Shown here piece after piece: positions 120 through 55,161 of a stretch of DNA of 57,152 bases (positions are counted from its first letter, which is position 1; each line of letters begins with the position of its first letter). The notes under the pieces were generated by a model that was not told where the DNA came from, did not search any database, and was given only the letters and a program-made list of their open reading frames with translations. This DNA is from Minisyncoccia bacterium. GTDB lineage: Bacteria; Patescibacteriota; Minisyncoccia; Phycocordibacterales; DATDWN01. The translations under genes and the position numbers were made by a program. Where the stretch lies: the NCBI GenBank assembly GCA_049297675.1, contig JBAQUS010000006.1, positions 1-57,152 of the forward strand, read 5' to 3'.

Positions 120-417
120 CATTACTCGCTATCGCTCGTATCACGATACCAATATACGAATTAGTACGAATGACACGAATAAATGCGAACCCTTTATTTC
201 TAAAGGAATGGACTATATCTTTATCCTACTTGGAAGCCGAGCTTCCAAGTAGGATATTTGCGTGTAGTCTCTACGGCGTCCTTCGACTTCGCTCAGGATA
301 AATCCCAAACTAATCTTAGGTTCCCTCGGTATTACCTTATTTAATTTCTTAAACTTAGGCTTCACCGATACAGCAAATTATCGAGATTGATTACTCAATC
401 AAGGGGCAAGTTCCGAT
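120..417 (-). mobile_element. group I intron-like insertion in 23S (between GGGTAAGT and TCCGAC, E. coli ~1945-1950 region), no ORF
   Basis: About 300 nt split an otherwise contiguous universal 23S block. It contains an R-like CCGTAGAGACTACA, a P8-like hairpin ATCCTACTTGGAAGC-TCGG-CTTCCAAGTAGGAT and an S-like AAAGATATAGTCC. AAGT is repeated at both junctions, so exact splice sites are ambiguous. Confidence 0.65.
143..190. repeat. ACGAAT-rich palindromic element, half copy, inside the 3' part of the 23S intron
   Basis: CACGATACCAATATACGAATTAGTACGAATGACACGAATAAATGCGAAC matches the arm of the intergenic ACGAAT elements. Confidence 0.7.
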
Positions 418-1127: not shown

Positions 1128-1697
1128 TTGTGCTACGCACAAGGGAAGCCTTATTCCGAAGTTACGGCTGCTTTTTTGCAGAGTTCCTTGGGGATCTCTC
1201 ACTCGTTCGCCTTACTCTACTCGAGCTGACTACCTGTGTCGGTTTACGGTACGGATTTCACGAAATTAAGCTTAGAAATTTTTCTTGGAAGCGTGCTTTG
1301 TACAATCCCCTTTGACGTATCGCCAGGTTTAAATACTACTTGGTATTATCATTTAAGAAAGTGTGCGGATTTACCTACACAGCTACCTTACAGTACATAC
1401 TCAAATCCAATAATGAGCTGTACATACTACCCTCCGTCCTTCCATCGCATTTCGCAAAAGTGCAGGAATATTAACCTGCTGTCCATCGGCTGCGGCTCTC
1501 GCCATTGCCTTAGGCCCGACTAACCCTGCTCTGATTGACATTGAACAGGAAACCTTAGTCTTTCGGCGCGAAGGGTTCTCGCCTTCGTTGTGGTTACTTG
1601 TGCCAACATTCTTACTTCGCAACGCTCCAGCATGGGTCACCCCTTTGCCTTCAGTGCAGATGCGAATACTCTCCTACCACTGCTCGTACCTCGCTAC

Positions 1698-1805
1698 ACG
1701 ATGCCAATATACGAATTTATGCGAATGAAACGAATATTCGTACACTTTTCGTAAGTGTATTTACATTCGTTTTATTCGTATGTTTATTCGTATCATTCGT
1801 ATCGC
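1698..1805. repeat. ACGAAT-rich palindromic element, full copy, inserted inside 23S rRNA
   Basis: ACGATGCCAATATACGAATTTATGCGAATGAAACGAAT...ATTCGTATCATTCGTATCG sits between conserved 23S blocks and is collinear with the intergenic copies. Confidence 0.8.
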
Positions 1806-2468
1806 AAAGTGAGGCACGAACAATCCTCAGTTTCGGTACTATGTTTAACCCCGATTATTTGCGGCGCAGAATCTCTTACTGAGTGAGCTGTTACGCTATC
1901 TTTAAAGGATGGCTGCTTCTAAGCCAACCTCCTCAGTGTCAGAGAAATTCCACCACCTTAAGTGTACTTAACATAGATTTAGGGACCTTAAATAGAGATC
2001 TAGGCTGTTTCCTTTTTGACGTACGGAGCTTAGCCCCCGCCGTCTAACTGCCGTATTATAATCCTGAGTATTCGGAGTTTGATAGGTTTAGCGATCTTTC
2101 GACCTGTCCAAACCTTCCAGTGCTCTACCCCTCAGGGGATCATACGACGCTAGCCCAAAAGCTATTTCGGAGAGAACCAGCTATTACCAGGCTCGATTAG
2201 CTTTTCACTTCTTATCACAAGTCATCCCAATGTATTGCACGGCATATGGGTTCGGGCCTCCCTTTTGATTTCTCAAAAGTTCACCCTGCTCATAACAAGC
2301 TCGCTCTGGCTTCGGGTCTAATGCATGCGATATATTCGCACTATTCATACTCGGTTTCCCTGCGCCTCCATCCGGCAAAGGATTTAGGCAAAACCGCATA
2401 CATTAACTCGTTGGCTCATTCTTCAATAGGCACGCCATGACCGTCACGTCTCGCTGAACTCGACGTAC

Positions 2469-6972: not shown

Positions 6973-6979
6973 TTAGTTG

Positions 6980-7086
6980 CGATACCAATCTACGAATTCA
7001 TACGAATTTACGAATAGTTAGTTACCCTTACGAAACGCACATACGAATTATTCGTATCATTCGTTTTCATTCGTATATTGGTATCG
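6980..7086. repeat. ACGAAT-rich palindromic element, full copy, 7 nt upstream of the rplJ start
   Basis: CGATACCAATCTACGAATTCATACGAATTTACGAAT...ATTCGTTTTCATTCGTATATTGGTATCG, with terminal inverted repeats of about 18 nt. Confidence 0.85.
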
Positions 7087-7228
7087 TGTTATATTTTTTC
7101 GACCTAAGGTAAAGTCCGAAAATAGTATTTCGTCTCGATCGGAAATTAAGTTCAACATATTGAGCACCGATTGTCTTTGACCTTATAACAAGAGAATATA
7201 CCAAAAAAGAGTTGGTGTCAATTATTCG

Positions 7229-16137: not shown

Positions 16138-16222
16138 CCACGAATGACCCACTAATGAAATCCCACGAATTTTACGAATAATGCATTTCATTCGTTATGA
16201 TTCGTGAGAGCCAATTCGTGGG
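16138..16222. repeat. ACGAAT-family variant element (CCCACGAAT...ATTCGTGGG)
   Basis: CCCACGAATGACCCACTAATGAAATCCCACGAATTTTACGAATAATGCATTTCATTCGTTATGATTCGTGAGAGCCAATTCGTGGG. Confidence 0.6.
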
Positions 16223-20273: not shown

Positions 20274-20714
20274 TTAGAAAGGAATGTCTTCGGGGTTAAT
20301 CTCCTCTTCAGGATACTCAATAGTATCCAGTGCTTTCTTATGTTCTTCTGGTGAAGGAGCTTCATAAGTGCTTGGTGTACTACCCTCTTTCTTTGGACCA
20401 AATTGGATTCTGTCGGCGATAACTTCAGTTCTGTATTTCTTTACGCCAGAAGCATCGTCCCAGCTCCTAGTTTGCATTCTTCCTTCGATAAGAATGGAGT
20501 TACCCTTTTTCATGTACTGACCCACAATATCAGCCTGGCGACCAAAAACTACAATATTATGAAAATCCACATTTTCTTGTTTTACTCCGTTCTTATCTTT
20601 CCAAACTCTATTTGTAGCAACTCCAAAGCTTGCCACCCTTACTCCCGAAGGTAGAGCCTTCAACTCTGGGTCTCTTGTCAGATTTCCTATGATTATGGCT
20701 TTGTTGAGATACAT
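20274..20714 (-). CDS. ssb: single-stranded DNA-binding protein
   Basis: MYLNKAIIIGNLTRDPELKALPSGVRVASFGVATNR... with an acidic C-terminal tail ending DIPF. The start is placed at the ATG that abuts the repeat element, because the 12 upstream ORF codons are element sequence. Confidence 0.9.
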   Translation of the reverse strand: MYLNKAIIIGNLTRDPELKALPSGVRVASFGVATNRVWKDKNGVKQENVDFHNIVVFGRQADIVGQYMKKGNSILIEGRMQTRSWDDASGVKKYRTEVIADRIQFGPKKEGSTPSTYEAPSPEEHKKALDTIEYPEEEINPEDIPF

Positions 20715-20829
20715 CCCGTTTAGAAACAGGTCGCGGTCTGGTAAGACCACTTCCCCGTCCCTATTATTAATTACTTATAACCTAACATATACCAATTAAT
20801 TTTCAAGCGACCGCGGTTTCTAACGGGAT
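20713..20829 (-). repeat. CCCGTTAGA-family element (117 nt) ending on the ssb start codon
   Basis: Reverse strand reads ATCCCGTTAGAAACCGCGGTCGC...GACCGCGACCTGTTTCTAAACGGGAT followed by G. It is flanked by ATGTAT on both sides. Same subfamily and same orientation relative to the gene as the recA copy. Confidence 0.85.
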
Positions 20830-20868
20830 ACATGGTATTTGTAAAGTTAAAAGTTTATAAAGTGGATA

Positions 20869-21403: not shown

Positions 21404-22210
21404 TTACTTGTCTATTTTAAACACCCTTTTTGCGTTGGAAACTAGGGTTTTTTTAGTTTCAAAAAGAGAGGTGTTTCTTATTTCTGCGATTTTTTTTACG
21501 ACCTCTGGAACATATAGAGGTGAATTTCTTTTTCCTCTGTGTGGAATTGGAGCTACAAAAGGAGCATCTGTTTCAGAGAGAATCATATCTTCTGGTACAT
21601 ATTTTATAAACTCATCATAATCCCTAGTAAAAGTAATTACCCCAGTAAAAGAAACTGTGAACCCAATGTTTAGAAATCGCTTCAAAATATCCATATCCCC
21701 AGCAAAAAAATGGGCATCACCAGATAGCCTTTCCCCTGAAATTTTATGATGGTGTTCCAAAATGTTAAGTGAGTCTAAATATGCATCCATAGTGCCTTTG
21801 GATGGTCTTAAGTGAAGCATGAGGGGTTTTTCCTTCATAAGCGCCAAATCTATATGATACTCAAAAACTGTTTTCTGGATTGTTTTAAGTTCTAAGTCAT
21901 CATCCCTTAACCTAAAATAATCCAAACCGCACTCGCCTACACAGACTACTTTTTCTTCATCCACTAAGTCACTAAGCCTCTCATCAAAAACCGAATCAGG
22001 TTTGAGATCTGATGGATGCTGACCTACACAGGCATAAAAACCATGATGTTTTTTGGTGATTTCTATGGCTTTTTGTGAGCTTTCAAAATCAGTGCCGACA
22101 GTTATTGTCCCAATTTTGGCTTTTTTTATTTTCTCTATCTCCTCTTCCCTATCTTTATCATAATCCGGAAAGTAGATGTGCGAGTGGATGTCAAAATAGT
22201 CGAAAGACAT
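21404..22210 (-). CDS. tatD: TatD-family metal-dependent hydrolase
   Basis: 268 aa with FDIHSHI, GECGLDY and ETDAPF motifs. Confidence 0.9.
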   Translation of the reverse strand: MSFDYFDIHSHIYFPDYDKDREEEIEKIKKAKIGTITVGTDFESSQKAIEITKKHHGFYACVGQHPSDLKPDSVFDERLSDLVDEEKVVCVGECGLDYFRLRDDDLELKTIQKTVFEYHIDLALMKEKPLMLHLRPSKGTMDAYLDSLNILEHHHKISGERLSGDAHFFAGDMDILKRFLNIGFTVSFTGVITFTRDYDEFIKYVPEDMILSETDAPFVAPIPHRGKRNSPLYVPEVVKKIAEIRNTSLFETKKTLVSNAKRVFKIDK

Positions 22211-22246
22211 GAAAGTTAAAAGTTATAAAGTTTATAAAGTAAGTAC

Positions 22247-23683: not shown

Positions 23684-23690
23684 ATAAGTG

Positions 23691-23822
23691 CGACACTAAT
23701 CCACGAATTCATGCGAATGATACGAGGTTAGATACCCTTGACGAATGGGCATACAAATTTATTTGTAATATTCGTATGCAATTCGTATATTGGTATCGCT
23801 TCATATTCGTAATTCGTGTCGA
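23691..23822. repeat. ACGAAT-rich palindromic element (composite copy) 7 nt upstream of the metG start
   Basis: CGACACTAATCCACGAATTCATGCGAATGATACGAGGTTAGATACCCTTGACGAATGGGCATAC...ATTCGTATATTGGTATCG plus an extra arm ATTCGTAATTCGTGTCG. Confidence 0.8.
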
Positions 23823-24944: not shown

Positions 24945-26213
24945 TTAGAGTTTGAAAAGTTTTTTGATTTCTTCTTCGTTTTCTACATTCCCTACTATTG
25001 CCATATTCATATTTTTATTAACAAAAATTTGTTTAGCAAGCTTTTGAATATCTTTTGCTGTAATTTTTCTTATTTCCTTCTCTTTTTCCTCTGGAGTTTT
25101 TATCTTCTCCCCCATTACTTCTTGAAAACCGTAAAAATCAGCAAGGGAATCCGATGATTCAAGCCCAAGATACATCCTGCCTATTTTATAATCCTTTGCT
25201 TTTTTTAGTTCCTCCTCAGTAATTTTTATTTCTTTTATTTTTCTTATCTCGCCTAAAATACCTTCAATCGCCATTCCAAGCCGATTTTTATCAACACCAG
25301 CAGGTATTCTAAAATTACCATGGTCTGTAAGCCCACTATAGCTTGAACCGATGTAATAGCAGATACCAAGTTCTTCTCTCATTTTCTGCCACAAACGCGA
25401 GCTCATCCCGACACCTAGGATGGTAGAAAGAAGACTTAGAACCCTTGCTCGTTTATCATGAAGATCAAATGCTCTAAATCCTATAATTAGATGCAACTGA
25501 TCAGTGTTTTTATGTTTAATCCTGATTTCCGGTTTTTCTTGCTTCTCTGAAAACTTACTTTTTCTGACTGTTTTTCCGGTGGAAATATTTTTGAAAGCTT
25601 TCTCAATTTTTTTAAAAGCTTCATCTATCTTTAGATCACCTGATGCAACAATAGTTGTTTTGCTAGCAACATAATGCTTTTTCCTGTACTGAAAAAAGTC
25701 TTCTTGCTTCATACTTTTAATATTTTCTTTTGGACCCAAAACTGTCCATCCGTATGGAGTATCACCATACATGAGCTCCTGAAAAACCTCATGAGAAATA
25801 ACTTGTGGTAAATCCTCATACATGTTTATTTCCTCAGTTATTACCCCTTTTTCCTTCTCCATTTCCGCCTTAGGAAATGTTGGATTTAAATACATATCAG
25901 AAATAATGTCTAATATCTTTTCAAAATTATTATTTGAGGCTTTAGCGTAATAAGAGGTGATTTCATTTGAGGTGAAGGCATTGTTTTCTGCACCCATACC
26001 ATCAAACTCCTTAGCAATATCCATAGCAGTAGGTCTGTTTTTGGTACCTTTAAAAAACATATGCTCTAGAAAATGTGAGACTCCGTTTTTCTCCTTTGTC
26101 TCATACTCCGAACCAGTCTCAATTATAGACATGACTGTAACGGAGGGTGCACCTTTTATGGGAACAACGATTATCCTTAGACCATTTTTAAGTGTTTTCT
26201 TTTGATATGTCAT
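24945..26213 (-). CDS. M16-family (pitrilysin-like) zinc peptidase
   Basis: 422 aa with the inverted zinc motif HFLEHMFFKGT. Confidence 0.85.
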   Translation of the reverse strand: MTYQKKTLKNGLRIIVVPIKGAPSVTVMSIIETGSEYETKEKNGVSHFLEHMFFKGTKNRPTAMDIAKEFDGMGAENNAFTSNEITSYYAKASNNNFEKILDIISDMYLNPTFPKAEMEKEKGVITEEINMYEDLPQVISHEVFQELMYGDTPYGWTVLGPKENIKSMKQEDFFQYRKKHYVASKTTIVASGDLKIDEAFKKIEKAFKNISTGKTVRKSKFSEKQEKPEIRIKHKNTDQLHLIIGFRAFDLHDKRARVLSLLSTILGVGMSSRLWQKMREELGICYYIGSSYSGLTDHGNFRIPAGVDKNRLGMAIEGILGEIRKIKEIKITEEELKKAKDYKIGRMYLGLESSDSLADFYGFQEVMGEKIKTPEEKEKEIRKITAKDIQKLAKQIFVNKNMNMAIVGNVENEEEIKKLFKL

Positions 26214-26214
26214 T

Positions 26215-26252
26215 GCGATACGAATATACGAATCATGCGAATGATACGAATT
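26215..26252. repeat. ACGAAT-rich element, half copy, abutting the M16 peptidase start codon
   Basis: GCGATACGAATATACGAATCATGCGAATGATACGAATT. On the reverse strand GTATCGCA is followed directly by the ATG. Confidence 0.75.
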
Positions 26253-34134: not shown

Positions 34135-35856
34135 TTACATTTTTTCTGGAACTTTAATAGCAAGAAGACTTAGCCCATCAGTCATAACCTGAGCAAAAGC
34201 CTTAGTTATGTAAAGCTTGTAAGACGATACTGGATCATTTTCGTCTATTATTTTCCCACTTGCATAAAAACTATTAAACTCCCCGGCTAACTCTGTCAAA
34301 TATGTCACTAAGTAGTGTGGAGCATATTCCCTACCCGCTTTCTCTACCACAGAGAAAAATCTCTCTAAATATCTCTCCAGATTTGTTGTCTTCCAATTCT
34401 CAGGTACTTCGGCTACTGCCTCAGTATCTCCAGCACCATTAGTGCTTTCGACTTTTTTCAAAATTGAATTTGCGCGAACTGCAGAATACTGAAGATACGG
34501 TCCGGAGTCACCCTCAAATGAAATAGACTTTTCAAAATCAAAGACAATGTCTCCTCCTATAGCCTGACGAAGTATTGAGTACTTTATTGCACCTATCGCC
34601 ACAATCTCTGCCAACTCCTCAATGTCAAGGGTGCCCCTTGGCATTTCGTCCCTATTTTTCATCTTATCTAAAACTTTGGTTTTTACTTGATCAATTAAAT
34701 CTTCTGCAGAAATGATTGTGCCTGTTCGAGATGACATTTTTCCACTTGGAAGTTTTAGAATACCATGAGAGAGATGATGGAGCTTCCTTTTAAGTTCTGG
34801 AAACACTTCTCCAATAGCTACTTCGACTACCTTGAAAAATGAATCCTGTTCATTTGCTGTAACTGTTATCGATTTGTCATAGTCAAACCAATCTTTCTTT
34901 ATTTGAGCCAAGCCTAACTCTTTTGCCTCGTATGTCGGCAATCCTTCGGAGTTCAGAAATACTCTTGTATGAGTTTTTGGCTCAAAATTCTCACCTTTAA
35001 AAATTATTGGCACTCTTTTTATCCCGTTAGAAACAGACTCTTCCTTAGAGTCGCCGTTTCGCACGGGATCGCCCTTTTCAAAAATACGACCAATATTTTC
35101 TCTGACTAATTCCTGCCCGATTTCGCCACTTTCACTTTCAAAAAAATGGAAGTCGAAATGACTATCAAGTCTTTTATAAAGAGCCTCAAAACCCTCAAGT
35201 GATTTTTGCCTACCATCTTCGTAAATCTCACTAATTTCTGGATCTGATTCCTCGTATATTTTTTTATTGATTTCTAGTATTTCAACTTTAGCTTTCTCAT
35301 TTTCCTCGAACTCTTTATAACCAAAAGCATAAGCTACCTCTAAATTCTTGCCTGCTTTTATTGCCCAAACTGCCATAGCAATGTGAAGACCAACATCTCC
35401 GTGATACGAGGCTACTTGTATTTCTGCACCATTTGCTTTTAGAATTCTCGAAACAGATTCTCCAATGCAGTTACCCATAAGATGTCCTATATGAAATTCT
35501 TTAAATGGATTCGGTTGTGAGTGCTCAAAAAATATCTTTTGGCCCTTAAAAATTTTTCCTTCAAATTTCTTACCTATTTCATCCTTAAAATAATTTGCAT
35601 CAAAAAAGAAGTTCAAAAATCCCGGTCTAGCTATATTTATAGCCGTTTGTGGAAGACGGTCTTCCACAAATTGGGATTTTATATTTTCGGCGAGGTCGAG
35701 GGGTTTTTTACCAAGCTCTTTTGCATACACCATGGCAACATTTGTTGAATAATCCCCCATTTCAATATGAGTTGGATAATCCAAAACAACCTTAGGATCT
35801 TTTACTCCTGACTCTTTTAGAATTTCAATTATTTTTTGTATTATTTCTTCTTTCAT
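34135..35856 (-). CDS. argS: arginyl-tRNA synthetase
   Basis: SQPNPFKEFHIGHL (HIGH) and a C-terminal DALR anticodon-binding region. The start is placed at MKEEIIQ, abutting the repeat element. The gene contains an in-frame 49-nt repeat copy. Confidence 0.95.
   Translation of the reverse strand: MKEEIIQKIIEILKESGVKDPKVVLDYPTHIEMGDYSTNVAMVYAKELGKKPLDLAENIKSQFVEDRLPQTAINIARPGFLNFFFDANYFKDEIGKKFEGKIFKGQKIFFEHSQPNPFKEFHIGHLMGNCIGESVSRILKANGAEIQVASYHGDVGLHIAMAVWAIKAGKNLEVAYAFGYKEFEENEKAKVEILEINKKIYEESDPEISEIYEDGRQKSLEGFEALYKRLDSHFDFHFFESESGEIGQELVRENIGRIFEKGDPVRNGDSKEESVSNGIKRVPIIFKGENFEPKTHTRVFLNSEGLPTYEAKELGLAQIKKDWFDYDKSITVTANEQDSFFKVVEVAIGEVFPELKRKLHHLSHGILKLPSGKMSSRTGTIISAEDLIDQVKTKVLDKMKNRDEMPRGTLDIEELAEIVAIGAIKYSILRQAIGGDIVFDFEKSISFEGDSGPYLQYSAVRANSILKKVESTNGAGDTEAVAEVPENWKTTNLERYLERFFSVVEKAGREYAPHYLVTYLTELAGEFNSFYASGKIIDENDPVSSYKLYITKAFAQVMTDGLSLLAIKVPEKM
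35031..35079. repeat. CCCGTTAGA-family mini element (49 nt) in frame inside argS
   Basis: ATCCCGTTAGAAACAGACTCTTCCTTAGAGTCGCCGTTTCGCACGGGAT is translated as DPVRNGDSKEESVSNGI. Same architecture as the spacer copy at 3450-3497. Confidence 0.75.
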
Positions 35857-35973
35857 CCCGTTAGAGATAGGAAACATTAGTTTCCGTAATTAATTTGGCT
35901 ATATAATTTAAATTACTAATATTAAGAATATACATCTTTTTTTAAAAAACAACTGGGTGATCTCTAACGGGAT
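35855..35973 (-). repeat. CCCGTTAGA-family element (119 nt) ending on the argS start codon
   Basis: Reverse strand reads ATCCCGTTAGAGATCACC...AATTAATTACGGAAACTAATGTTTCCTATCTCTAACGGGAT followed by G, with ATGAA on both flanks. Confidence 0.85.
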
Positions 35974-37280: not shown

Positions 37281-37398
37281 CCCATTAGAGATAGGAAATC
37301 AAAGATTTCCGTAATTAATTGATAAATTTGTATATAACCACATTACTCTAGCATTATTACATGATCTCGAAAATGAATTTTTTGATCTCTAACGGGAT
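37279..37398 (-). repeat. CCCGTTAGA-family element (120 nt) between glyA and the mazG-like gene
   Basis: Reverse strand reads ATCCCGTTAGAGATCAAAAAA...AATTAATTACGGAAATCTTTGATTTCCTATCTCTAATGGGAT followed by G. The 5' repeat contains the glyA stop codon, and the 3' repeat supplies the AT of the mazG-like ATG. Confidence 0.85.
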
Positions 37399-38582
37399 AA
37401 ACTTCTTAAGATTTTATCAATCTTTCGAGCAATATTCACAAAATCTTTTTCCTTTTTTCCTCTGGTGGTTTCAGCCGGAGAGCCGAGCCGTATTCCAGAT
37501 GGATCCATTGATGAACGTTTCTCACCTGGAATGGTGTTTTTGTTTACGATTATGCCAGCTTTCTCAAGCCTATCACTAGCCTCTTTTCCGGAAATTCCCT
37601 TCGCATCCATCCAAGTATCGACCAAAATGAGATGGGAGTCAGTCCCACCAGATACCACTCGCCAGCCTAATCTGGATAACTCATTGGCAAGAGCTTTAGC
37701 ATTTTTGATTACCTGCTTGGCATATTTTTTAAAGGCAGGACTGTCGGCTTCTTTTAAAGCCACTGCCACAGCCGCTATTTGATTTAAATGTGGACCTCCC
37801 TGAAGTCCGGGAAAAACTGCTCTGTCTATTTTTTTAGCTATTTCTCTATTTGGTTCTCTCTCGTCAATTTTGGAGAATATCATGGCAGAGCGAGGACCAC
37901 GAAGTGTTTTATGAACTGTTGTTGTAACAACATCAGCATATTTGAAAGGACTGTCATATACTCCACCCGCAACCAAGCCTGCAAAGTGTGACATATCTAC
38001 CATAAGAATTGCCCTGCAAGAATCTGCAATTTCTCTGAATTTCTTGAAATCAACTTTTCTTGGATAAGCTGTAAAACCGCAAACAATAATATTCGGTTTC
38101 TCACTTTCTGCAATTTTTTTCAGTTCTGGATAATTTATTACTTCTGTTTTTGCATCAACTCCAAAAGGCACTTGTATCCAAGCTTTACCTGTCATTGAAA
38201 CTTTGAAACCGTGAGTTAAATGGCCCCCATCTTGCAAATTCATTCCCATAATTTTCCCGCCAAGCGGTACTAGCCCCAAATAAACTGCCAAATTTGCCGG
38301 GGAGCCAGAAAGTGGTTGAACATTTACATGCCACTTATCTTTTGAGAGTTTGAAAAGTTTAAGAGCCCGAGTTTTTGCGAGATTCTCAATTTTGTCGACA
38401 ATTTCGTTTCCACCGTAGTACCGGGCTCCCGGATACCCCTCTGCATATTTATTTGTCAGCTCCGACCCAAGTGCCTCTAAAACATCTTTTGATACAAAAT
38501 TTTCCGAGGCAATAAGATTTATGACACCTTTCTGTCTTTTTTTCTCCTCATCTATTAGTTTTTTGATTTCCTTGTCTTTCAT
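37389..38582 (-). CDS. glyA: serine hydroxymethyltransferase
   Basis: 397 aa with NLIASENFVS, the PLP-lysine context TTTVHKTLRGPR and GIRLGSPAETTRG. Confidence 0.95.
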   Translation of the reverse strand: MKDKEIKKLIDEEKKRQKGVINLIASENFVSKDVLEALGSELTNKYAEGYPGARYYGGNEIVDKIENLAKTRALKLFKLSKDKWHVNVQPLSGSPANLAVYLGLVPLGGKIMGMNLQDGGHLTHGFKVSMTGKAWIQVPFGVDAKTEVINYPELKKIAESEKPNIIVCGFTAYPRKVDFKKFREIADSCRAILMVDMSHFAGLVAGGVYDSPFKYADVVTTTVHKTLRGPRSAMIFSKIDEREPNREIAKKIDRAVFPGLQGGPHLNQIAAVAVALKEADSPAFKKYAKQVIKNAKALANELSRLGWRVVSGGTDSHLILVDTWMDAKGISGKEASDRLEKAGIIVNKNTIPGEKRSSMDPSGIRLGSPAETTRGKKEKDFVNIARKIDKILRSLSR

Positions 38583-38839
38583 CCCGTTAGAGATAGGAAA
38601 CCTCTCAAGCGATTCTTGAGATAACGTTTACCCATACCAGTTTTTAAATATATCTCTCTTATTCTAGCATCATGATCATCCAAGCATGCTTCATAATATA
38701 TCACTTCGAATGGTTTATCTCTTCTGGTAAAGGTTGATTTCCCTTCGTTATGTTGCTTGAGACGTTTCCGAAGGTCATTTGTACTACCTGTGTACAATCT
38801 ACCATTTTTCTTACTTTTTAATATGTAGGTGTATATCAT
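38579..38839 (-). CDS. GIY-YIG domain nuclease (small YhbQ/COG2827-like type)
   Basis: 86 aa with IYTYILKSKKNGRLYTGSTNDLRKRLKQHNEG...YYEA....A..RE..LK. The stop TGA overlaps the glyA ATG (ATGA). Confidence 0.85.
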   Translation of the reverse strand: MIYTYILKSKKNGRLYTGSTNDLRKRLKQHNEGKSTFTRRDKPFEVIYYEACLDDHDARIREIYLKTGMGKRYLKNRLRGFLSLTG

Positions 38840-38862
38840 AACAGTGTGATCTCTAACGGGAT
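38581..38862 (-). mobile_element. CCCGTTAGA-family element carrying a GIY-YIG nuclease ORF (candidate autonomous copy)
   Basis: Reverse strand reads ATCCCGTTAGAGATCACACTGTT-ATG...(ORF)...GGTTTCCTATCTCTAACGGGAT followed by G. The 14-nt terminal inverted repeats are identical to those of the ORF-less copies at argS and mazG. Confidence 0.75.
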
Positions 38863-42087: not shown

Positions 42088-42633
42088 TTAGGTTTTTTTG
42101 ACCTGTAAGAAGTCGAGCTCCACTGGTGTCTCTCTACCAAACATTGCAACTAGTACTTTTACCTTCCCTCTCTCTTCATCCACTTCTGAAACTTTGCCTT
42201 CCAAGTCTTTAAACGGTCCATCAATAATTTTGACTGCATCATTTATTGAAAGATCTATCTTATGCTTTACATCCCCAGCGTTCATCCTACTGAAAAGCTC
42301 ATCTATCTCTTTTTTGTCAATTGGCACCGGGTAAACACCAGAGCCGACAAAACCAGTGACACGAGGAGTATTTCTGACAACATACCAAGAGTCTTCCGTA
42401 ACTATCATGTCAACTAATATGTATCCAGGATAAATTTTCTCCTCCTCTTCAACCCTTTTTCCACCTTTTATTTTTATTTTCTTCTCAGTAGGAACTATGA
42501 CGTTGAAAATCTTGTCCTCCATTCCAAGAGATTCTATACGCTGTTTGAGATTACGCATAACAGCATTCTCGTACCCAGCGTATGTGTGAACGACATACCA
42601 ATTCCTTCCGCTTTGTATTTGTTGTTTAGACAT
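42088..42633 (-). CDS. nusG: transcription termination/antitermination factor NusG
   Basis: 181 aa with an NGN domain (WYVVHTYAGYENAV) and a KOW domain (VKIIDGPFKDLEGKVSEVDEERGKVKV). Confidence 0.95.
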   Translation of the reverse strand: MSKQQIQSGRNWYVVHTYAGYENAVMRNLKQRIESLGMEDKIFNVIVPTEKKIKIKGGKRVEEEEKIYPGYILVDMIVTEDSWYVVRNTPRVTGFVGSGVYPVPIDKKEIDELFSRMNAGDVKHKIDLSINDAVKIIDGPFKDLEGKVSEVDEERGKVKVLVAMFGRETPVELDFLQVKKT

Positions 42634-42642
42634 ATTTTATAT

Positions 42643-42751
42643 GATACCAATCTACGAATTTATGCGAATGAAACGAATGTTAGATACACTTAACGAATAG
42701 GGCATACGAATCCATTCGTATAATTCGTATGTAATTCGTATATTTGTATCG
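42643..42751. repeat. ACGAAT-rich palindromic element, full copy, between secE and nusG
   Basis: GATACCAATCTACGAATTTATGCGAATGAAACGAATGTTAGATACACTTAACGAATAGGGCATACGAAT...GTAATTCGTATATTTGTATCG. Near-identical to the reverse complement of the copy at 46095-46234. Confidence 0.85.
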
Positions 42752-42761
42752 CTAAATCTTA

Positions 42762-42941
42762 TTAAATAATAAATTTCTCCAAAACCAATTTCAAAAGATA
42801 ATCAAAAAAACCGAGATAAAAAGAAACGAAAACAGAAATGATAACAACAACCACAGTGAAAGCCATGGCCTGATTTCTTGTTGGCCAAGAAACATGCTTC
42901 AGCTCTCCTTGGGTGTCTTTGATGTATGATATAAGTGACAT
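42762..42941 (-). CDS. secE: preprotein translocase subunit SecE (59 aa)
   Basis: Manual translation gives MSLISYIKDTQGELKHVSWPTRNQAMAFTVVVVIISVFVSFYLGFFDYLLKLVLEKFII. It has the canonical ELK.V.WPTR motif and sits upstream of nusG. It falls below the ORF-track cutoff. Confidence 0.75.
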   Translation of the reverse strand: MSLISYIKDTQGELKHVSWPTRNQAMAFTVVVVIISVFVSFYLGFFDYLLKLVLEKFII

Positions 42942-42954
42942 AAATTTATTCTAT

Positions 42955-43052
42955 CACGACACCAATACACGAATGAAGACGAACGTACGAATGGGTTCAG
43001 AATTCTGAATTCAATTCGTGTCATTCGAGTATTTATTCGTAATTCGTGTCGC
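42955..43052. repeat. ACGAAT-family element (CACGAAT variant) upstream of secE
   Basis: CACGACACCAATACACGAATGAAGACGAACGTACGAATGGGTTCAGAATTCTGAATTCAATTCGTGTCATTCGAG...ATTCGTAATTCGTGTCG. Confidence 0.75.
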
Positions 43053-43124
43053 GTTACTAAAAAACCCCTCCTGGGGAATGCCTAAAGAATACTCTTTTTG
43101 AAAATAGAAGTCAATATAACGTAT

Positions 43125-43555
43125 AAAGAAAGGGCCCCGCTTCAAGAGAAGACAAGGGCCCCAATCGCGAGATTCGAAATGCGCTACAGTCGCCACATGG
43201 GATGAAAGTCGATGGCTAGTTACTCACCGGCCTTCACCCCTTTCCGAAAAAACAGGTTGCCCTCGGCAGAAGCGAACGTCGCCTATGCTCTGGCGGGTGT
43301 TGATCAGCGCCCGATTCGGACCGCGATCAACTGCCTGAGTTTTTAAGCTGGATAACCCCCAGCCGAGTGTGGACTAGAGGCGGCCACACACCATCAAACT
43401 GATCTCTGTCGGGAAACTAGCTCTCCCACCAGTTGGAACTCCAAGAGTTCCAGACCAATTTGGCCTCCTGGGACCTACAGCATCATGCACACTTTGTAGT
43501 TCATGCCAGAGCCGTTGTCCCCTCCGCCCACCATCCTAGCACACACTAATTGCTT
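43125..43555 (-). ncRNA. unassigned G+C-rich structured RNA (~400 nt) with intrinsic terminator
   Basis: The segment is markedly more G+C-rich than its flanks and has no ORF of 60 aa or more in any frame. It contains many local hairpins, for example TGGAACTC/GAGTTCCA, GTTGATCGCG/CGCTGATCAAC, GCTGG/CCAGC and GTGTGG/CCACAC. On the reverse strand it ends in GGGCCC...GGGCCC-TTTCTTT, and a second terminator, CCCCAGGAGGGG-TTTTTT, lies at 43076-43059. Confidence 0.45.
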
Positions 43556-43784
43556 TTGTCAAGAAAATTTTCATCAAAAATCCATTTTCTTTTTTAGTAT
43601 CAAAAAACAGCCCTTCACAGAGCCGTTTCTTGTAAATCAAGTAAAAATTGTGGCGCAAGAAAACTTTCACAAACTGAGTGAATTTCGAGGTTCGCAGATT
43701 TTACTTGCGACCAAACTGTACATCTAGTACAGCGCGTGGAGAAAGCAAAATCGAGATCAAAGAAATTCGCCAGTTTTGGAAGTT

Positions 43785-44594
43785 TTATTCGACTTCGTAG
43801 GTTATGGTCACACTCGAGACAACCTTATTCTCCCCGACTGGAACTTGTGGAGGAGTAGGTGCATACTCTGCATTAGCACTGATTGAATCCAGCTTCATCA
43901 TCCCACCATACATTACCGGATAATTTCCTCCCTCTTGGAAATTGACTATTTTTTTAAGTCTCACTCCTAGAGATTTTGATAAAACCTTGGCCTTTTCTTT
44001 TGCATCAATTATTGCTTTTTCTCTAGCTTCATCTTGAACTTTCTCCTCATCATCAATGACAAAATTAAGTCCAGTTGCGTTTGTCACACCAAGCTCTCCA
44101 ACTTTTGTCAGTACCAAGCCAGCGTCAGCTGTTTTTCTTATTTTTATGGTCACACTTTGATTAACCTCATAGCCAGTAAGAGTTTGCTTTCCAGGTGGAC
44201 AATAATCTCTAGTACAAATCTGAGCTACAGAATAGTCATATTTTGGATAAAAAGTGTAGTTATCAGTTTTAATATCTTTCTCTTCAATACCAAGACCTTT
44301 AAGAGCATCTATTACGCTATTAATTTTTTTAGTAGATTTATCCTGTGCATCTTTGACAGTTTTCCCTTCCTCAACAACGGAAAAGCCGAAGGACCCAATA
44401 TCCGGAACTGCCAAAACTTCCCCTGTTCCAGTCACAGAGATCACGTTTGCTGGATATTCACCTCGCCCTATGTATGAATTTTCCTTAAGAGCGTTTAGAG
44501 ACTTAATGCCAAGAAAAACTGCTAGTAAAATACAAACTGCAAGTAAGCTATTAAATAATCTTTTCTTTTGCAAATCATTTAGAGATTGATACAT
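43785..44594 (-). CDS. SIMPL/DUF541-family periplasmic protein
   Basis: 269 aa with an N-terminal TM/signal anchor and the family-typical ISVTGTGEVLAVPDIGSFGFSV. Confidence 0.75.
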   Translation of the reverse strand: MYQSLNDLQKKRLFNSLLAVCILLAVFLGIKSLNALKENSYIGRGEYPANVISVTGTGEVLAVPDIGSFGFSVVEEGKTVKDAQDKSTKKINSVIDALKGLGIEEKDIKTDNYTFYPKYDYSVAQICTRDYCPPGKQTLTGYEVNQSVTIKIRKTADAGLVLTKVGELGVTNATGLNFVIDDEEKVQDEAREKAIIDAKEKAKVLSKSLGVRLKKIVNFQEGGNYPVMYGGMMKLDSISANAEYAPTPPQVPVGENKVVSSVTITYEVE

Positions 44595-44662: not shown

Positions 44663-45205
44663 TTACATTCTGTTATAAACCTTTATAGTCCCGTATGAAA
44701 CCGTAATGCCCAGAACCACACCAAAAAGGACGTCTGAGAACCAGTGAGCGTTGAGATAAATTCGAGAATAACTAACTAGAAAAATAAGTGCTATGCACGA
44801 GAAATTAAATAATATTCTTTGAAACCTGCTTAAATGATCACTGAAAAGATACATGGTCATGATAAAAAAGATGGTCGCGATTGTAGCATGACCGCTAGGA
44901 AAACTCTTACCGAAAACTTCGACAGAACTCTCTGCCGGACGATTTACATCGAAAAACATTTTTAGTACAGAAACTATAATTGCTCCTGTAGTAAGTGTTG
45001 TAAAAAAAAGTAGAGCTCTTTTGAGACCACCGATAAGATAGAAAAGTAGAGTAAAGGCTACAACAACCAAAATAAAATGGATGGATAGATCAAATATTGT
45101 TGTAAGTAAGTAAAAAAACTCCGTCATACTCTCTGTACGACTTGTCGAAATATAGTTTTGAATGGCAAAGTCAATACTTAACATATTATATAAACCATCT
45201 TGCAA
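44663..45205 (-). CDS. PAP2-family phosphatase
   Basis: 180 aa with the PAP2 motifs KMFFDVNRP, PSGH and SRIYLNAHWFSDV. The true start may be the internal MLSIDF. Confidence 0.8.
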   Translation of the reverse strand: MQDGLYNMLSIDFAIQNYISTSRTESMTEFFYLLTTIFDLSIHFILVVVAFTLLFYLIGGLKRALLFFTTLTTGAIIVSVLKMFFDVNRPAESSVEVFGKSFPSGHATIATIFFIMTMYLFSDHLSRFQRILFNFSCIALIFLVSYSRIYLNAHWFSDVLFGVVLGITVSYGTIKVYNRM

Positions 45206-46067
45206 ATATTCCTGCGGTTAAAAGCCTATGGGTGTTTGTTTCCTTGATAGATAACTCTCCACACGCTGTCTTACCTCCTAAATCTTTTGTTAAATCCTCT
45301 AAAACTTGTTTGTAAGTCTCGGCAGAGTAGTTCGAAGCATAGCCGTTTAAAACTATTGCTATCGGATCTTTTGATAAAACACTTTTAACTCTTTTTAGAA
45401 AAGGCAAAAGATCATTTTCTATTTTCCATACTTCCTTTTTGACGCCCTTTCCATACACTGGAGGATCGAGAAGTATGACGTCGTACTTGTTTCCTCGCTT
45501 TATTTCTCTTTCAACAAACTTTCTAACATCATCCACAATAAACCTAACGGGTTTTTCCTCTAATCCGGAATCTTTTAAATTCTTTCTTGCCAGATCCACC
45601 GCAAATTTAGACGAGTCAATATGGTAGACCTCTGCCCCAGCCCTCGCGCAAGCCATCGTAGCCCCACCAGTGTACGCAAAAAGATTTAGAACTTTGATCC
45701 TATTCGTATTATTCGCATGAATTCGTATATTTGTATCGCGTTTAATCTTCCCCTCAAGCCACTTCCACTGCCCTACCTGTTCTGGAAAGACTCCGAGGTG
45801 TTTAGAGGGCAAAAGTGATACATTAAAAGTCAGTTCTTCTAAGGTTATTTGCCAATTTTCTAATGGCTTTAACCATTTACCAGAAGCACCCGAACGAACG
45901 TAAGTTGAATCAGCCCCTTCCCATTCTTTTTTGGAAAGTGACTTTGCCCACAAAACTTGTGGATCGGGTCTACGCAAAACATACTGTCCGTATCTCTCGA
46001 GCTTCTCTCCTTCTCCACTATCTAGCAGTTCGTAGTCTTTTGATTTTTCAGTTACTAGAATTTCCAT
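45186..46067 (-). CDS. class I SAM-dependent (RlmI/YccW-like) methyltransferase with in-frame repeat insertion
   Basis: 293 aa with VLNLFAYTGGATMACARAGAEVYHIDSS and ILLDPP. The 15 residues RDTNIRIHANNTNRI are encoded by an ACGAAT half element. Confidence 0.8.
   Translation of the reverse strand: MEILVTEKSKDYELLDSGEGEKLERYGQYVLRRPDPQVLWAKSLSKKEWEGADSTYVRSGASGKWLKPLENWQITLEELTFNVSLLPSKHLGVFPEQVGQWKWLEGKIKRDTNIRIHANNTNRIKVLNLFAYTGGATMACARAGAEVYHIDSSKFAVDLARKNLKDSGLEEKPVRFIVDDVRKFVEREIKRGNKYDVILLDPPVYGKGVKKEVWKIENDLLPFLKRVKSVLSKDPIAIVLNGYASNYSAETYKQVLEDLTKDLGGKTACGELSIKETNTHRLLTAGIFARWFI
45697..45740. repeat. ACGAAT-rich element, half copy, in frame inside the methyltransferase gene
   Basis: GATCCTATTCGTATTATTCGCATGAATTCGTATATTTGTATCGCG is the reverse complement of the arm consensus CGATAC.AATATACGAATTCATGCGAAT.ATACGAAT. 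Confidence 0.8.
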
Positions 46068-46094: not shown

Positions 46095-46234
46095 GCGATA
46101 CGAATATACGAATGTCATACGAATACTACAAATGTAAATACACTTACGAAAAGTGCATGCTAATATTCGTATGCCCTATTCGTTAAGGGTATCTAACATT
46201 CGTATCATTCGCATAAATTCGTAGATTGGTATCG
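46095..46234. repeat. ACGAAT-rich palindromic element, full copy, upstream of the methyltransferase start
   Basis: GCGATACGAATATACGAATGTCATACGAAT...ATTCGTATGCCCTATTCGTTAAGGGTATCTAACATTCGTATCATTCGCATAAATTCGTAGATTGGTATCG. Confidence 0.85.
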
Positions 46235-46237
46235 TGA

Positions 46238-53262: not shown

Positions 53263-54912
53263 TCACACTTGTATCGAGAAATTATAAGAAGTTACAATTT
53301 CTCTATCAAGTATGCTCTCGTAGCTCAATGGATAGAGTAGAGCTCTTCTAAGGCTTTGATGTTGGTTCGATTCCAACCGAGAGCACAAAATAGGACTTCG
53401 GTCAGTTTCAGAAAAAGAAATCGGGGAAATCACGGCGGATTCGTTTTGCCGAACGGCAAAACGGGCAAGGGTGGTCTGGGCGAATTCGTATTCTGGTTTC
53501 CAAATCCAAGAGGGGGATTTTTCGGAAATGAGGCGGTTCGTTCCAATTTTTTGAACAAACTCCGATATCTCTCCAAGAGATTCCGCAGAAGCAATTTTTT
53601 CCGCTTGAGTTAAGGTTTTTATGTATTCTCTGGCTGGTTCGATCCAGCTACTGACATGCTTCCGCAGAAGCGACTCCTTTTCATTTTTGAGAGATATTTT
53701 TTGCTCGACAAACTGACTCTTTTTCGTGCGATATGTGTCCTCATCAATCAAATTGTCTAAATAACCACTGACCAGTTTGTCGAGCTTTTCATCTATCAAA
53801 AATATTTTCTTTGAGATCGCTTCTGCAGAAACATTAGCTGACTTAGTTTCTTTCTTTTCTTCAATATCGAGCATGGTATGTAATTCACGTGTCCAATTAG
53901 CCGGTAAAGCGATCGTCAGCGATTTTTCTATGATTTTCCTTTTCAAATCATTTTCTTGCATATACTTCTCGCTACACTCTCCGTGCTTCCTTGTGCAACG
54001 ATAATATCTGTAAGTGCCACCATTACCATGTGTCCACTGTGCCGTAATCATCGAGCCACATGAACAATGGAATAATCCGACAAAAGGAAAATCATGTTTT
54101 GATTTGGTTTTGCGAGGTCTGCTTCTCTCTCGCAAAACTTCCGCAACTTTTGTAAATAATTGTTTTGTAATAAGTGGCTGGAATTTTCCTTCATACGCTT
54201 CACCATTCCACATCATCACGCCCATATATAATTCATTACAAAGAAAATGTTCAATGGCGAAATTAGATTTTGTTTTTCCATCGGTTAATTTAGCAAAATA
54301 TTCGGCGATACTGTTAAAGGTATGAGTTCCAGTGGCGTATTCGGCAAAAACCTTTTTAACAATTTTGGCTTCTCTCGGCTCTGGTACAATATTGCGAAGT
54401 CTGTGGTCGTAAATATATCCAAACGGTTTTTGTCCTGGCCATCCGCCCTGTCGAAGTTTGGCTCGATTGCCACGCTTCACATTCTCTGACAGATTGTCTA
54501 TGTAATATTTGGCATTTGATAATCCGATAGAGAGAAAGAATTTGCCAGACGGCGTATTATCAAAAGCAAAAGTGGGAAATTTCAAATCAGCTAGTTTGCC
54601 AGTGTCTAGTAGATAAATCAAACGCCCACCATCTACTGAATTACGAGACAATCTGTCTGGGTTCCACGAAAGAATACCAAACTGATGAGGAAGACCAGCA
54701 TCTAATTTGTTGAGCATGGTGTTAAATACTTCACGACCAGGAACTTTGGCTGTTTTCTTTTCAATAAAAGTTTCCACAATTTCAATATGCTCACGCTCGG
54801 CAAATTCTTTCAGCTCGGTGTGTTGCGATTCCAAACTCAAAACTTGGCGATCTTCCTCATCAGTGGATTTGCGAATGTAGAGAAAATATTTTAGTGGTGT
54901 TTGATTGTTCAT
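53263..54912 (-). CDS. large serine recombinase (phage-integrase/transposase type)
   Basis: 549-aa ORF with the N-terminal resolvase catalytic domain (YIRKSTDEEDRQVLSLESQ...NPDRLSRN), a recombinase domain and a Cys-rich zinc ribbon (CSCGSMI...YYRCTRK...C). The last ~40 codons read antisense through tRNA-Arg, so the functional C-terminus is uncertain. Confidence 0.9.
   Translation of the reverse strand: MNNQTPLKYFLYIRKSTDEEDRQVLSLESQHTELKEFAEREHIEIVETFIEKKTAKVPGREVFNTMLNKLDAGLPHQFGILSWNPDRLSRNSVDGGRLIYLLDTGKLADLKFPTFAFDNTPSGKFFLSIGLSNAKYYIDNLSENVKRGNRAKLRQGGWPGQKPFGYIYDHRLRNIVPEPREAKIVKKVFAEYATGTHTFNSIAEYFAKLTDGKTKSNFAIEHFLCNELYMGVMMWNGEAYEGKFQPLITKQLFTKVAEVLRERSRPRKTKSKHDFPFVGLFHCSCGSMITAQWTHGNGGTYRYYRCTRKHGECSEKYMQENDLKRKIIEKSLTIALPANWTRELHTMLDIEEKKETKSANVSAEAISKKIFLIDEKLDKLVSGYLDNLIDEDTYRTKKSQFVEQKISLKNEKESLLRKHVSSWIEPAREYIKTLTQAEKIASAESLGEISEFVQKIGTNRLISEKSPSWIWKPEYEFAQTTLARFAVRQNESAVISPISFSETDRSPILCSRLESNQHQSLRRALLYPLSYESILDREIVTSYNFSIQV
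53314..53385 (+). tRNA. tRNA-Arg (TCT)
   Basis: GCTCTCGTAGCTCAATGGATAGAGTAGAGCTCTTCTAAGGCTTTGATGTTGGTTCGATTCCAACCGAGAGCA folds as a cloverleaf with anticodon loop CTTCTAA. The last 6 nt lie inside the left 162-bp inverted repeat. Confidence 0.9.
53380..53541. repeat. left arm of 162-bp inverted repeat (includes the recombinase 3' coding end and the last 6 nt of tRNA-Arg)
   Basis: Reverse complement of 55000-55161 with about 5 mismatches and no indels seen. Confidence 0.9.
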
Positions 54913-54999: not shown

Positions 55000-55161
55000 A
55001 CGAACCGCCTCATTTCCGAAAAATCCCCCTTTTGGATTTGGAAGCCAGAATTTGAATTCGCCCAGACCACCCTTGCCCGTTTTGCCGTTCGGCAAAACGA
55101 ATCCGCCGTGATTTCCCCGATTTCTTTTTCTGAAACTGACCGAAGTCCTATTTTGTGCTCT
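55000..55161. repeat. right arm of 162-bp inverted repeat, upstream of the recombinase gene
   Basis: ACGAACCGCCTCATTTCCGAAAAATCCCCC...CCTATTTTGTGCTCT. It encodes a near-copy of the recombinase C-terminal ~54 residues on the plus strand. Confidence 0.9.

Follow-up and report, generated by a model that had tools for sequence, protein, structure and literature searches.

The DNA analysed here, hereafter the window, is a stretch of 57,152 nt from Minisyncoccia bacterium contig JBAQUS010000006.1, with 38% G+C and Patescibacteria housekeeping genes. Its minus strand holds the 5' 2,100 model positions of a 23S rRNA gene that contains two group I introns. Dispersed among these genes are palindromic elements built of ACGAAT units, which are the subject of this report. 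The original prediction described a family of at least ten such copies, a description on which motif enrichment, alignment, a profile hidden Markov model (HMM) of the element arm, and folding all agree. ACGAAT occurs 74 times in the window, compared to 26.9 +/- 4.8 times in shuffled sequences (shuffle maximum 39). The matches fall into ten clusters, in which forward units come first and reverse units follow, and these clusters lie at exactly the ten places given earlier, with coordinates and consensus correct. A MAFFT alignment assigns all of them to one family, comprising seven palindromes of 85-140 bp and three single arms, as follows.

h1, 143..190, plus strand: single arm, CGATACCAATATACGAATTAGTACGAATGACACGAAT; located in the second of the two group I introns in the 23S rRNA gene (minus strand), within that intron's 3' tail
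A, 1690..1811, unstranded: full palindrome in the terminal loop of 23S rRNA helix 45
B, 6979..7087, unstranded: full palindrome, 6-7 nt before the rplJ ATG (rplJ 6475-6972, minus strand)
C, 16138..16222, unstranded: palindrome of a divergent subfamily, units CCCACGAAT and CTCACGAAT, between a Big-domain gene and recA
D, 23690..23822, unstranded: full palindrome, GACAC subfamily, in which a second right end is nested
h2, 26214..26252, plus strand: single arm adjoining the ATG of an M16 peptidase gene (24945-26213, minus strand; Pfam)
E, 42641..42752, unstranded: full palindrome filling the spacer between secE (42762-42941) and nusG (42088-42633); fold z=-3.1
F, 42955..43053, unstranded: full palindrome of the GACAC subfamily, 13 nt before the secE ATG; fold z=-4.6
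h3, 45700..45740, minus strand: single arm within a methyltransferase coding sequence (CDS; 45186-46067), with the in-frame reading RDTNIRIHANNTNR
G, 46095..46236, unstranded: full palindrome with a composite centre holding modules of E and A; fold z=-8.2

The family makes up about 1.6% of the window and is dispersed outside the rRNA at about one copy per 6 kb. The arm HMM detects 15 arms, and a degenerate arm pattern of 27 nt has 9 matches in the window, against an expectation of 0.00. All full copies (7/7) fold into hairpins, with z values of -3.1 to -9.4 relative to shuffles and roughly 30-50 paired positions. Apart from the copies in the 23S gene, the intron, and the CDS, the window copies occupy stop-to-start spacers of co-directional genes. 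D begins 5 nt after the stop codon of an AI-2E transporter gene and ends 6 nt before the metG ATG, while G lies 2 nt after the YjbQ stop codon and 27 nt before the methyltransferase ATG; for E, the distance to the upstream stop is 9-10 nt. The stop-side end of an element is thus positioned no less tightly than the ATG-side end. The earlier statement that elements end 0-12 nt before an ATG stands for four of the seven intergenic cases (M16 peptidase 0-1 nt, rplJ 6-7, metG 6, nusG 7-9) and fails for secE by a single nucleotide (13 nt), for the methyltransferase (27 nt), and for recA (about 167 nt).

Several copies have features of their own. Infernal places copy A as an insertion between LSU (large-subunit rRNA) model positions 1218 and 1219, inside a hairpin loop, and its RNA folds together with the host stem at -59.8 kcal/mol (z=-9.4), the complementary ends extending the host helix. 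The intron carrying h1 (arm HMM match at 142-183, E=5e-11) is a 303-nt insertion at 116-418 in the Rfam LSU alignment, and its group I core ends at 190. The two introns, 116-418 and 445-773, are only 26 nt apart, at Rfam LSU positions of about 1953 and 1984, and the second has a 74-nt tail past the catalytic core that holds h1. The arm HMM resolves the two arms of B at 6978-7012 (plus) and 7047-7088 (minus); B folds with z=-5.1, and its neighbour is L10 by Pfam. Copy C contains six ACGAAT units ordered +++--- and folds with z=-5.2; it is not picked up by the arm HMM over the window. D was located correctly, except that its outermost right end is ATTCGTGTCG at about 23822 and GGTATCGC is nested inside it. 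The single arms h2 and h3 are matched at 26214-26252 (E=2e-8) and with E=1e-11, respectively. In the protein, h3 amounts to a net insertion of 9 residues relative to PDB 2igt. An arm-coded peptide, such as DTNIRIHANNTN or RYESTKHANDTN, is found at this loop in 12 of 120 methyltransferase homologues, and the others have a short loop.

Each arm consists of four tandem units of 9-10 bp, GCGATACCAAT-ATACGAAT-GCATGCGAAT-GATACGAAT. The consensus of 136 arms, drawn both from the window and from other genomes, has tandem units of 8-10 bp, (a)(c)GC-GATACCAAT-ATACGAAT-GCATGCGAAT-GATACGAAT, and reads GCGATACCAATATACGAATGCATGCGAATGATACGAAT when written whole. In this set, C(C/G)AAT closes each unit, and conservation extends to positions that the search pattern does not constrain: within the fourth unit, 130 of the 136 arms have A33, 110 have A34, and 109 have T35. 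A full element is a pair of inverted arms around a short centre, with inverted ends of ~38 nt. Lengths range from 76 to 231 nt in a tight distribution with a median of 94 nt (34 strictly paired elements). Single arms represent about half of all detected copies. At least three subfamilies coexist in the window, namely a GATAC type, a GACAC type (D and F), and the divergent copy C, and within each of them the two arms of a copy match one another. E and G have 69 nt in common at 97% identity, as reverse complements (42643-42711 and 46165-46233), and their centres contain modules also found in copy A. A subfamily marked by one internal module, CCCTTAACGAATAGGGCATACGAAT, has spread to unrelated loci, namely B, D, E, G, and two loci of other genomes (the L125 CDS and L042; L numbers label compared loci), which speaks for mobility.

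The family extends well beyond the window. A scan of species-representative genomes with the arm pattern yielded at least 119 loci, compared to about 9 chance matches by our own estimate. Nearly all of them are in metagenome-assembled genomes of the candidate phyla radiation (CPR), from Microgenomates groups, Parcubacteria groups, and Gracilibacteria. Lineage labels among the matches listed include Zambryski-, Taylor-, Jorgensen-, Moran-, Woese-, Roizman-, Collier-, and Gracilibacteria, along with others. A few matches are labelled as non-CPR, yet they carry CPR-like NusG or 23S sequences. The arm pattern was not found in IMG/VR contigs or in GenBank phage genomes. One CPR contig (L032) has an element in the same 23S helix as copy A, and further CPR contigs have elements elsewhere in or beside the 23S gene. 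The window palindromes are members of one real, abundant, CPR-wide family, whose arms are spread across many Patescibacteria classes.

A protein-coding form of the element is found in other genomes. At several loci, the arms are about 400 nt apart and the interval is a single open reading frame (ORF), which matches only PF13366 (PDDEXK_3) and TIGR04256 (GxxExxY). In this unit of about 500 bp, a nuclease gene of about 130 codons lies between a left arm and a right arm that is inverted. Among the matches listed, all ten PDDEXK_3 genes in the genome loci are flanked by repeat arrays, and ORF-less copies far outnumber ORF-bearing ones, by 156 to about 8. In one metagenome-assembled genome, AMAZON01, the ORF-less and ORF-bearing forms have the GTGATAC end in common. 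The association was also approached from the protein side, with 80 metagenome loci (278 kb searched) chosen by the PDDEXK_3 protein alone, using a four-sequence alignment as query. In these loci, the arm HMM identifies a left arm immediately upstream of the gene in 77 of 80 cases and an inverted right arm immediately downstream of it in 66; 64 loci have the two together, and only 22 other arms occur in the entire 278 kb. This PDDEXK_3 clade is thus near-obligately paired with the arms. Moreover, the nuclease start codon lies in arm unit 3 (ATG CAT GCG AAT GAT ACG AAT, MHANDTN), and the gene ends within the right arm, whose first unit holds the stop codon (AAA TTC GTA TAA), which argues that ORF and arms are one integrated unit. 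The arrays around two more distantly related PDDEXK_3 genes are also inverted but are built of different units, GCGAAA and CAGCG, so that the repeat unit changes with the protein.

Comparable arrangements exist outside CPR bacteria. On the Fusobacteria plasmid pZRK30-1 (L206), a GxxExxY gene is bracketed by repeats, with three direct copies of 52 nt. On Treponema saccharophilum pTS1 (L207), the gene lies within the inverted pair CACACGGATTCG / CGAATCCGTGT, and the core of this repeat, AATCCGTGT, resembles ATTCGTGT of the CPR GACAC subfamily. In another context, repeat-flanked PDDEXK_3 units or single arms stand directly upstream of genes with a prepilin-type N-terminus (FTLIELLV-like) at L018 (about 1400-1440), L034 (about 2950-3000), and L109 (about 1990); at L018, the frame is open from the nuclease gene via the right arm into the pilin-like gene.

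The protein has the hallmarks of a nuclease. Its catalytic residues, E35, D67, E77, and K79, are invariant in an alignment of 43 sequences, preserving the E...D...ExK arrangement, and an AlphaFold2 model (mean pLDDT 87.8) adopts a minimal PD-(D/E)XK fold. Structure comparison of this model returned no neighbour at E<=0.001. Its weak matches are generic PD-(D/E)XK proteins, including Cas4 SSO0001, lambda-type exonucleases, tRNA-splicing endonuclease, Hjc, and the catalytic domain of I-Bth0305I. A profile match to T7 endonuclease I (E=0.026) is borderline and does not suffice to propose a junction-resolving activity. The function of PDDEXK_3 is listed as "Unknown" in a reference survey (PMC3424549), and in the literature searched we found nothing that links GxxExxY/PDDEXK_3 to repeats or describes this CPR family.

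The original prediction proposed looking for empty sites in relatives and for target-site duplications (TSDs), and it named confinement to this contig and a lack of position variation as outcomes that would speak against a mobile element. Neither adverse outcome was encountered, given the at least 119 loci elsewhere and the varying positions among relatives, and empty sites were found (for example, in L098, L087, L208, and L209). Occupancy of orthologous junctions is patchy. The secE-nusG junction holds a full element in the window (E), a single arm in L048, and a bare spacer of 11-16 nt in L098, L101, and L009. An element stands at the position of F in L067 and L101 as well, and there is none in L098 or L048. 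At the AI-2E-metG junction (D), three genomes (the window, L070, and L063) are filled and L087 is empty, and the h2 junction is empty in L070, L063, L087, and L027. The junction orthologous to that of the divergent copy C carries a canonical element in L118, whose RecA is 90% identical. ORF-bearing units also sit at the nusG-rplK junction of two CPR genomes (L048 3113-3585 and L009 1144-1640), a junction that is a bare 43-nt spacer in the window.

The GtrA-dnaX junction presents the clearest pair of alleles. In L133, the unit is present as TAG-C-[element]-ATTCT-ATG, whereas relatives with DnaX proteins 90% and 86% identical have only TAA-A-ATG and TAA-CTTTAT-ATG. These empty spacers measure 6 nt in L208 and 1 nt in L209, and the residual spacer of L133, also 6 nt, equals that of L208. 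This is a clean gain or loss of the unit without duplication. A more distant relative (DnaX 72% identical) has a 111-nt spacer with ACGAAT remnants. In the search for TSDs across 79 full elements, direct repeats of 3-5 nt were no more frequent than in permuted controls, whatever the boundary offset, although a 2-nt duplication is still possible.

In L125, the closest relative found (methyltransferase 77% identical), element G is kept at the same junction. Identity to the window is 100% over both arms of G, the 27 nt that follow downstream, and the first 10 nt of the methyltransferase CDS, compared to about 73% in the coding DNA around G. The centre of the L125 copy is inverted and partly deleted. 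The L125 methyltransferase also carries a longer in-frame version of the arm, and the in-CDS arm differs at 1 of 38 positions. Separately, GC-rich hairpin sequences, such as CTCCGACGCTTCGGTCGGAGCCCCGACCAAAGCGTCGGGG, are nested in ACGAAT elements or in one of their arms in L012, L013, L017, L053, L083, L087, and L128, the last of these at a site where the orthologous arm of L133 is intact. These nested hairpins are a second small element family that targets ACGAAT elements.

The surroundings of the elements were described for 80 full and 76 single-arm copies among the matches listed, using simple ORF calls. In tandem gene pairs, 39 of 55 elements begin 0-5 nt past the upstream stop, and 32 of 55 finish 1-13 nt ahead of the downstream ATG, most often at 6 nt. 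Among the matches listed, 15% of tandem, 18% of divergent, and 7.6% of convergent junctions are occupied. Compared to control genes from the same loci, genes directly downstream of an element are enriched in ribosomal proteins, EF-Tu-type GTPases, and NusA.

These observations lead us to favour, with moderate confidence, the explanation that the window palindromes are the ORF-less, nonautonomous form of a nuclease-carrying, repeat-flanked unit that is widespread in Patescibacteria. The element is built like a REPIN or a MITE (miniature inverted-repeat transposable element), and it is best read as having a PD-(D/E)XK nuclease, and not a known transposase, as its partner. All that the window copies retain is either a single arm or both arms with a short centre that is variable and modular. 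From the sequences, we infer that the protein is an active nuclease, that it binds the arms, and that it drives mobility in the following manner. The nuclease would bind the phased arm units as a multimer and make breaks at or between the arms. Host repair of such breaks might then place copies of the unit, or of its ORF-less derivative, at new sites and might also homogenise existing copies. Copying driven by breaks would account for identical arms amid diverging genes, for flipped centres, and for modules common to different copies. Copies would persist where a palindrome is harmless, such as the stop-to-start spacers of tight operons, the loops of rRNA helices, peripheral intron regions, and protein surface loops. 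RNase III would be expected to remove the copies in rRNA loops, as it does with known intervening sequences (IVSs).

A wider version of this explanation is put forward tentatively, and we regard it as somewhat more doubtful than credible. It holds that GxxExxY/PDDEXK_3 proteins, a large family, may be the nucleases of an unrecognised class of bacterial mobile elements, in which the gene lies between inverted arrays of binding units (9-11 bp) co-evolving with its product. Such elements would insert without a TSD and scatter ORF-less palindromes through CPR genomes, into rRNA helices, introns, stop-to-start spacers, and ORFs. Nuclease-driven gene conversion would keep the arms uniform, and some copies may have been co-opted to control leaderless genes from close to their starts. 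The original prediction offered an array of binding sites for an ACGAAT-recognising factor as an alternative to a MITE-like repeat. Both are probably true at the same time, judging from the fact that the arms bracket the PDDEXK_3 gene and that the unit changes with the protein.

Several observations weigh against a selfish, nuclease-driven element. The placement after stops and before ATGs is very regular, and its modal distance of 6 nt from the ATG matches the -10 box spacing of leaderless mRNAs. The enrichment of translation genes downstream could mean host function or targeted insertion and not simple tolerance. The identity of the G arms across two species whose flanking genes are only about 73% identical is unexpected for decaying selfish DNA; it excludes neutral decay and calls for selection or, alternatively, for gene conversion that is frequent. 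Insertion polymorphism within a population was not observed; five same-strain contigs are 100% identical to the window. There is no PDDEXK_3 gene within the 57-kb window, the partner gene having been found only in other genomes. Finally, the nuclease gene might not move the palindromes at all but be carried by them, having homed into palindromes that already existed.

This last possibility can be framed as an explanation of its own, in which a homing-endonuclease-like PDDEXK_3 cuts ORF-less palindromes, repair copies its gene into their centre, and the palindromes themselves spread by another route. The exact position of the ORF between the arms fits such a guest, as do filled and empty alleles without TSD, the large excess of ORF-less over ORF-bearing copies, and the existence of PD-(D/E)XK homing endonucleases, one of which, I-Bth0305I, is among the weak structural matches. 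The GtrA-dnaX alleles argue otherwise, since the alternative allele there is a bare spacer of 1-6 nt and not an ORF-less palindrome. The start and stop codons built from arm units likewise make ORF and arms look integrated, whereas the co-variation of repeat unit and protein fits either model. On balance, a guest nuclease is an unlikely explanation.

We judge it similarly improbable that the element is foremost a host cis-regulatory sequence, with arms that act as outward promoters or operators for leaderless or short-leader mRNAs, or that are bound by a global regulator of translation genes, mobility being secondary. The main attraction of this idea lies in the architecture of gene starts in these genomes. 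At 594 element-free gene starts (L001-L119), TATAAT-like hexamers peak 6-8 nt before the ATG, and in the window extended -10 boxes (TGnTAyAAT) lie 6-7 nt before the ATG upstream of 29550, 47544, 19670, and 46067. Shine-Dalgarno motifs are scarce. The position of the TATAAT peak indicates that leaderless mRNAs are widespread in these genomes, which makes the modal 6-nt spacing of element ends suggestive. A consensus scan also identified TTCGCA-16 nt-TGnTATCAT in the arm that faces nusG. The lower occupancy of convergent junctions, the translation-related genes downstream, and the complete conservation of orthologous arms point in the same direction.

The arms themselves do not bear out a promoter role. 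Start-facing arms are no more promoter-like than stop-facing arms, and the TGG of a would-be extended -10 box is present on 60% of stop-facing but only 20% of start-facing arms. The terminal hexamer, TATCGC, does not end in the T that is conserved in -10 boxes. Relative to transcription, full elements are not biased in orientation (26 vs 29), and single arms show a weak bias (31 vs 15, p=0.03). The methyltransferase has its own box, TGaTACAAT-6 nt-ATG, outside element G. The earlier suggestion that the repeat may supply the promoter or 5' untranslated region of host genes found no support here. Copies in 23S helix 45, in an intron, in a CDS, and in convergent junctions are similarly difficult to reconcile with a promoter, as are several subfamilies side by side in one genome and the bracketing of one particular gene family, PDDEXK_3, by the arms.

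RNase III punctuation of transcripts has precedents in T7 early mRNAs and in 23S IVSs. The element might, in the same manner, be selected as a transcribed hairpin at which RNase III processes transcripts or which confers stability, both between cistrons and in rRNA; it would separate messages or stabilise them and keep stop and start codons close. All full copies fold, and elements start 0-5 nt past stops and end a few nucleotides before starts. One copy occupies the helix-45 site from which known IVSs are excised by RNase III (PMC4990558). Nevertheless, about half of the copies are single arms, which cannot form a hairpin, and elements occur in both orientations. Among mismatches between arms, G.U pairs on the sense strand are not in excess (30 vs 45), and transversion mismatches are present at 15% of arm positions; together, these results point to constraint on DNA sites rather than on an RNA hairpin. 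A hairpin is also an automatic consequence of inverted arrays of binding sites. We therefore consider RNA-level punctuation quite improbable as the primary role. The guest-nuclease, promoter, and RNA-level explanations could nevertheless hold side by side.

A known RNA family was rejected, with no Rfam match at gathering score in the window beyond rRNA, introns, and tRNAs, and none that is credible at E<=1 over 42560-43800. A guide array of the tandem interspaced guide RNA (TIGR) or CRISPR type was rejected on account of the units of 9-10 nt with conserved sequence in the 3-5 nt between cores and the lack of a Nop-domain Tas gene nearby, as TIGR-Tas arrays have edge and loop repeats, variable 9-nt spacers, 36-nt units, and a Nop-domain Tas gene (PMC12045711).

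The family has several implications. CPR genomes are tiny and streamlined, yet in this window the family is lodged inside essential-gene operons and the 23S rRNA gene. It connects rRNA intervening sequences, palindromic repeats dispersed over whole genomes, and repeats inserted in frame in proteins, three phenomena that are usually treated apart. It also suggests a concrete and testable role for GxxExxY/PDDEXK_3, a first clue for a widespread family of unassigned function. In practice, the arm HMM flags a cause of contig breaks in CPR assemblies, two sets of same-strain contigs having their ends in or next to elements, and also a source of false N-terminal extensions and "insertions" when genes are called.

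The window contains other repeated or unusual sequences. A second dispersed motif, (T)TCTAACGGGAT(G), usually follows a short GC-rich hairpin, is found on both strands, and overlaps the start codon (GGGATG) in several copies, including that of recA. Its copies are the following.

3450-3460: (T)TCTAACGGGAT(G)
5603-5613: same motif
16270-16280: same motif
16380-16391: same motif
20713-20724: same motif
20819-20829: same motif
35021-35031: same motif
35855-35865: same motif
35963-35973: same motif
37388-37398: same motif
38581-38591: same motif
38852-38862: same motif

Arrays of AAAGTTATAAAGTTTATAAAGT, with tandem units of 9-10 nt, are located at 6381-6416, 20239-20274, 20828-20863, and 22205-22240. 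Two of them directly precede the ATGs of minus-strand genes (5967-6365 and 21404-22210), and they may be another unit-array family like the ACGAAT arms. Upstream of secE, about 700 nt (43060-43780) are GC-rich (0.47-0.53 vs 0.38) and without a convincing ORF; Rfam gives no credible match at E<=1 for this stretch, which is a candidate for an unannotated structured RNA. As stated in the original prediction, no transposase is linked to the elements in the window, the sole recombinase being a serine recombinase (ORF 53263-54912; Resolvase, Recombinase, and Zn_ribbon_recom domains) that has unrelated repeats. A 162-nt inverted repeat of 98% identity (53380-53541 / 55000-55161) surrounds it, the left arm of which begins inside a tRNA-Arg gene (53314-53386). 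This segment could be invertible or integrated.

Among known systems, free-standing homing endonuclease genes, such as the T4 seg and mob genes, resemble the ORF-bearing unit in that a small nuclease gene is placed precisely between conserved genes. As with a homing gene, the nuclease ORF is present in L133 and absent from L208 and L209, without TSD. However, the unit described here has long inverted repeat arrays, and its many ORF-less derivatives at varied sites make a single homing target insufficient as an explanation.

Rickettsia palindromic elements (RPEs) are in-frame insertions that are tolerated in protein and RNA genes of a reduced genome. No gene is known to mobilise them. The in-frame arm at h3 and the arm-coded peptides of 12 methyltransferase homologues are similar, but the sequences are unrelated and the copies of the present family are mostly intergenic.

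With the IVSs found in the 23S rRNA of Coxiella, Salmonella, and Leptospira, copy A shares extra sequence in the loop of helix 45, the classical IVS site, and complementary stem ends that extend the host stem, so that by its sequence it qualifies as a helix-45 IVS. Some IVSs carry an ORF of unassigned function, such as the small S23p ORF between the inverted ends of the Coxiella IVS (PMC4990558), just as the full form of the present element carries PDDEXK_3. In contrast to such IVSs, copy A has no ORF and its family is also dispersed outside rRNA. The presence of one family both in helix 45 and elsewhere ties an IVS directly to a genome-wide repeat family.

The MITE-like character proposed in the original prediction is evident in the short, non-coding, multi-copy form of the element, its terminal inverted repeats, its subfamilies, its insertions in rRNA, intron, and CDS, and its patchy occupancy. 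The Correia/NEMIS MITEs of Neisseria are particularly similar, being 100-150 bp in length, with terminal inverted repeats, many copies, and several subfamilies, adjacent to genes and co-transcribed as hairpins. Correia elements can also supply outward promoters and are substrates of RNase III. They duplicate TA, whereas no TSD was found here, and the present element has no relative with a DDE transposase. Its ends are tandem-repeat arrays that match those around a PDDEXK_3 gene and not those of a recognised transposase family, and its ORF-bearing counterpart encodes a nuclease of 130 residues. With neither a TSD nor a known transposase, the element is not a classical MITE.

Among known systems, REPIN-RAYT of Proteobacteria comes closest. 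Both systems consist of high-copy, short, intergenic palindromic doublets with one associated nuclease or transposase gene that is bracketed by inverted repeats. In both, the repeat sequence differs by protein clade, insertion leaves no TSD, and copies persist over the long term with homogeneous sequences. They differ in the enzyme, which is a PD-(D/E)XK protein (PDDEXK_3/GxxExxY) here and an HUH Y1 transposase (IS200/IS605-like) in RAYT, and in the repeat, as REP sequences are GC-rich hairpins of 20-40 bp with a GTAG or CGTC head, whereas the present arms are four tandem units of 9-10 bp whose consensus over 136 arms contains no such head. The host is also different, as are the sites, which in these CPR bacteria are mostly co-directional stop-to-start spacers but also include rRNA, intron, and CDS positions. 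Given the different enzyme fold and repeat design, the element is not a member of the REPIN-RAYT family. Palindromic repeats with a cognate nuclease are a known theme, of which this family is a novel version; if the nuclease does mobilise or homogenise the arms, it would constitute a second, independently evolved system of the REPIN-RAYT type, based on a different enzyme fold.

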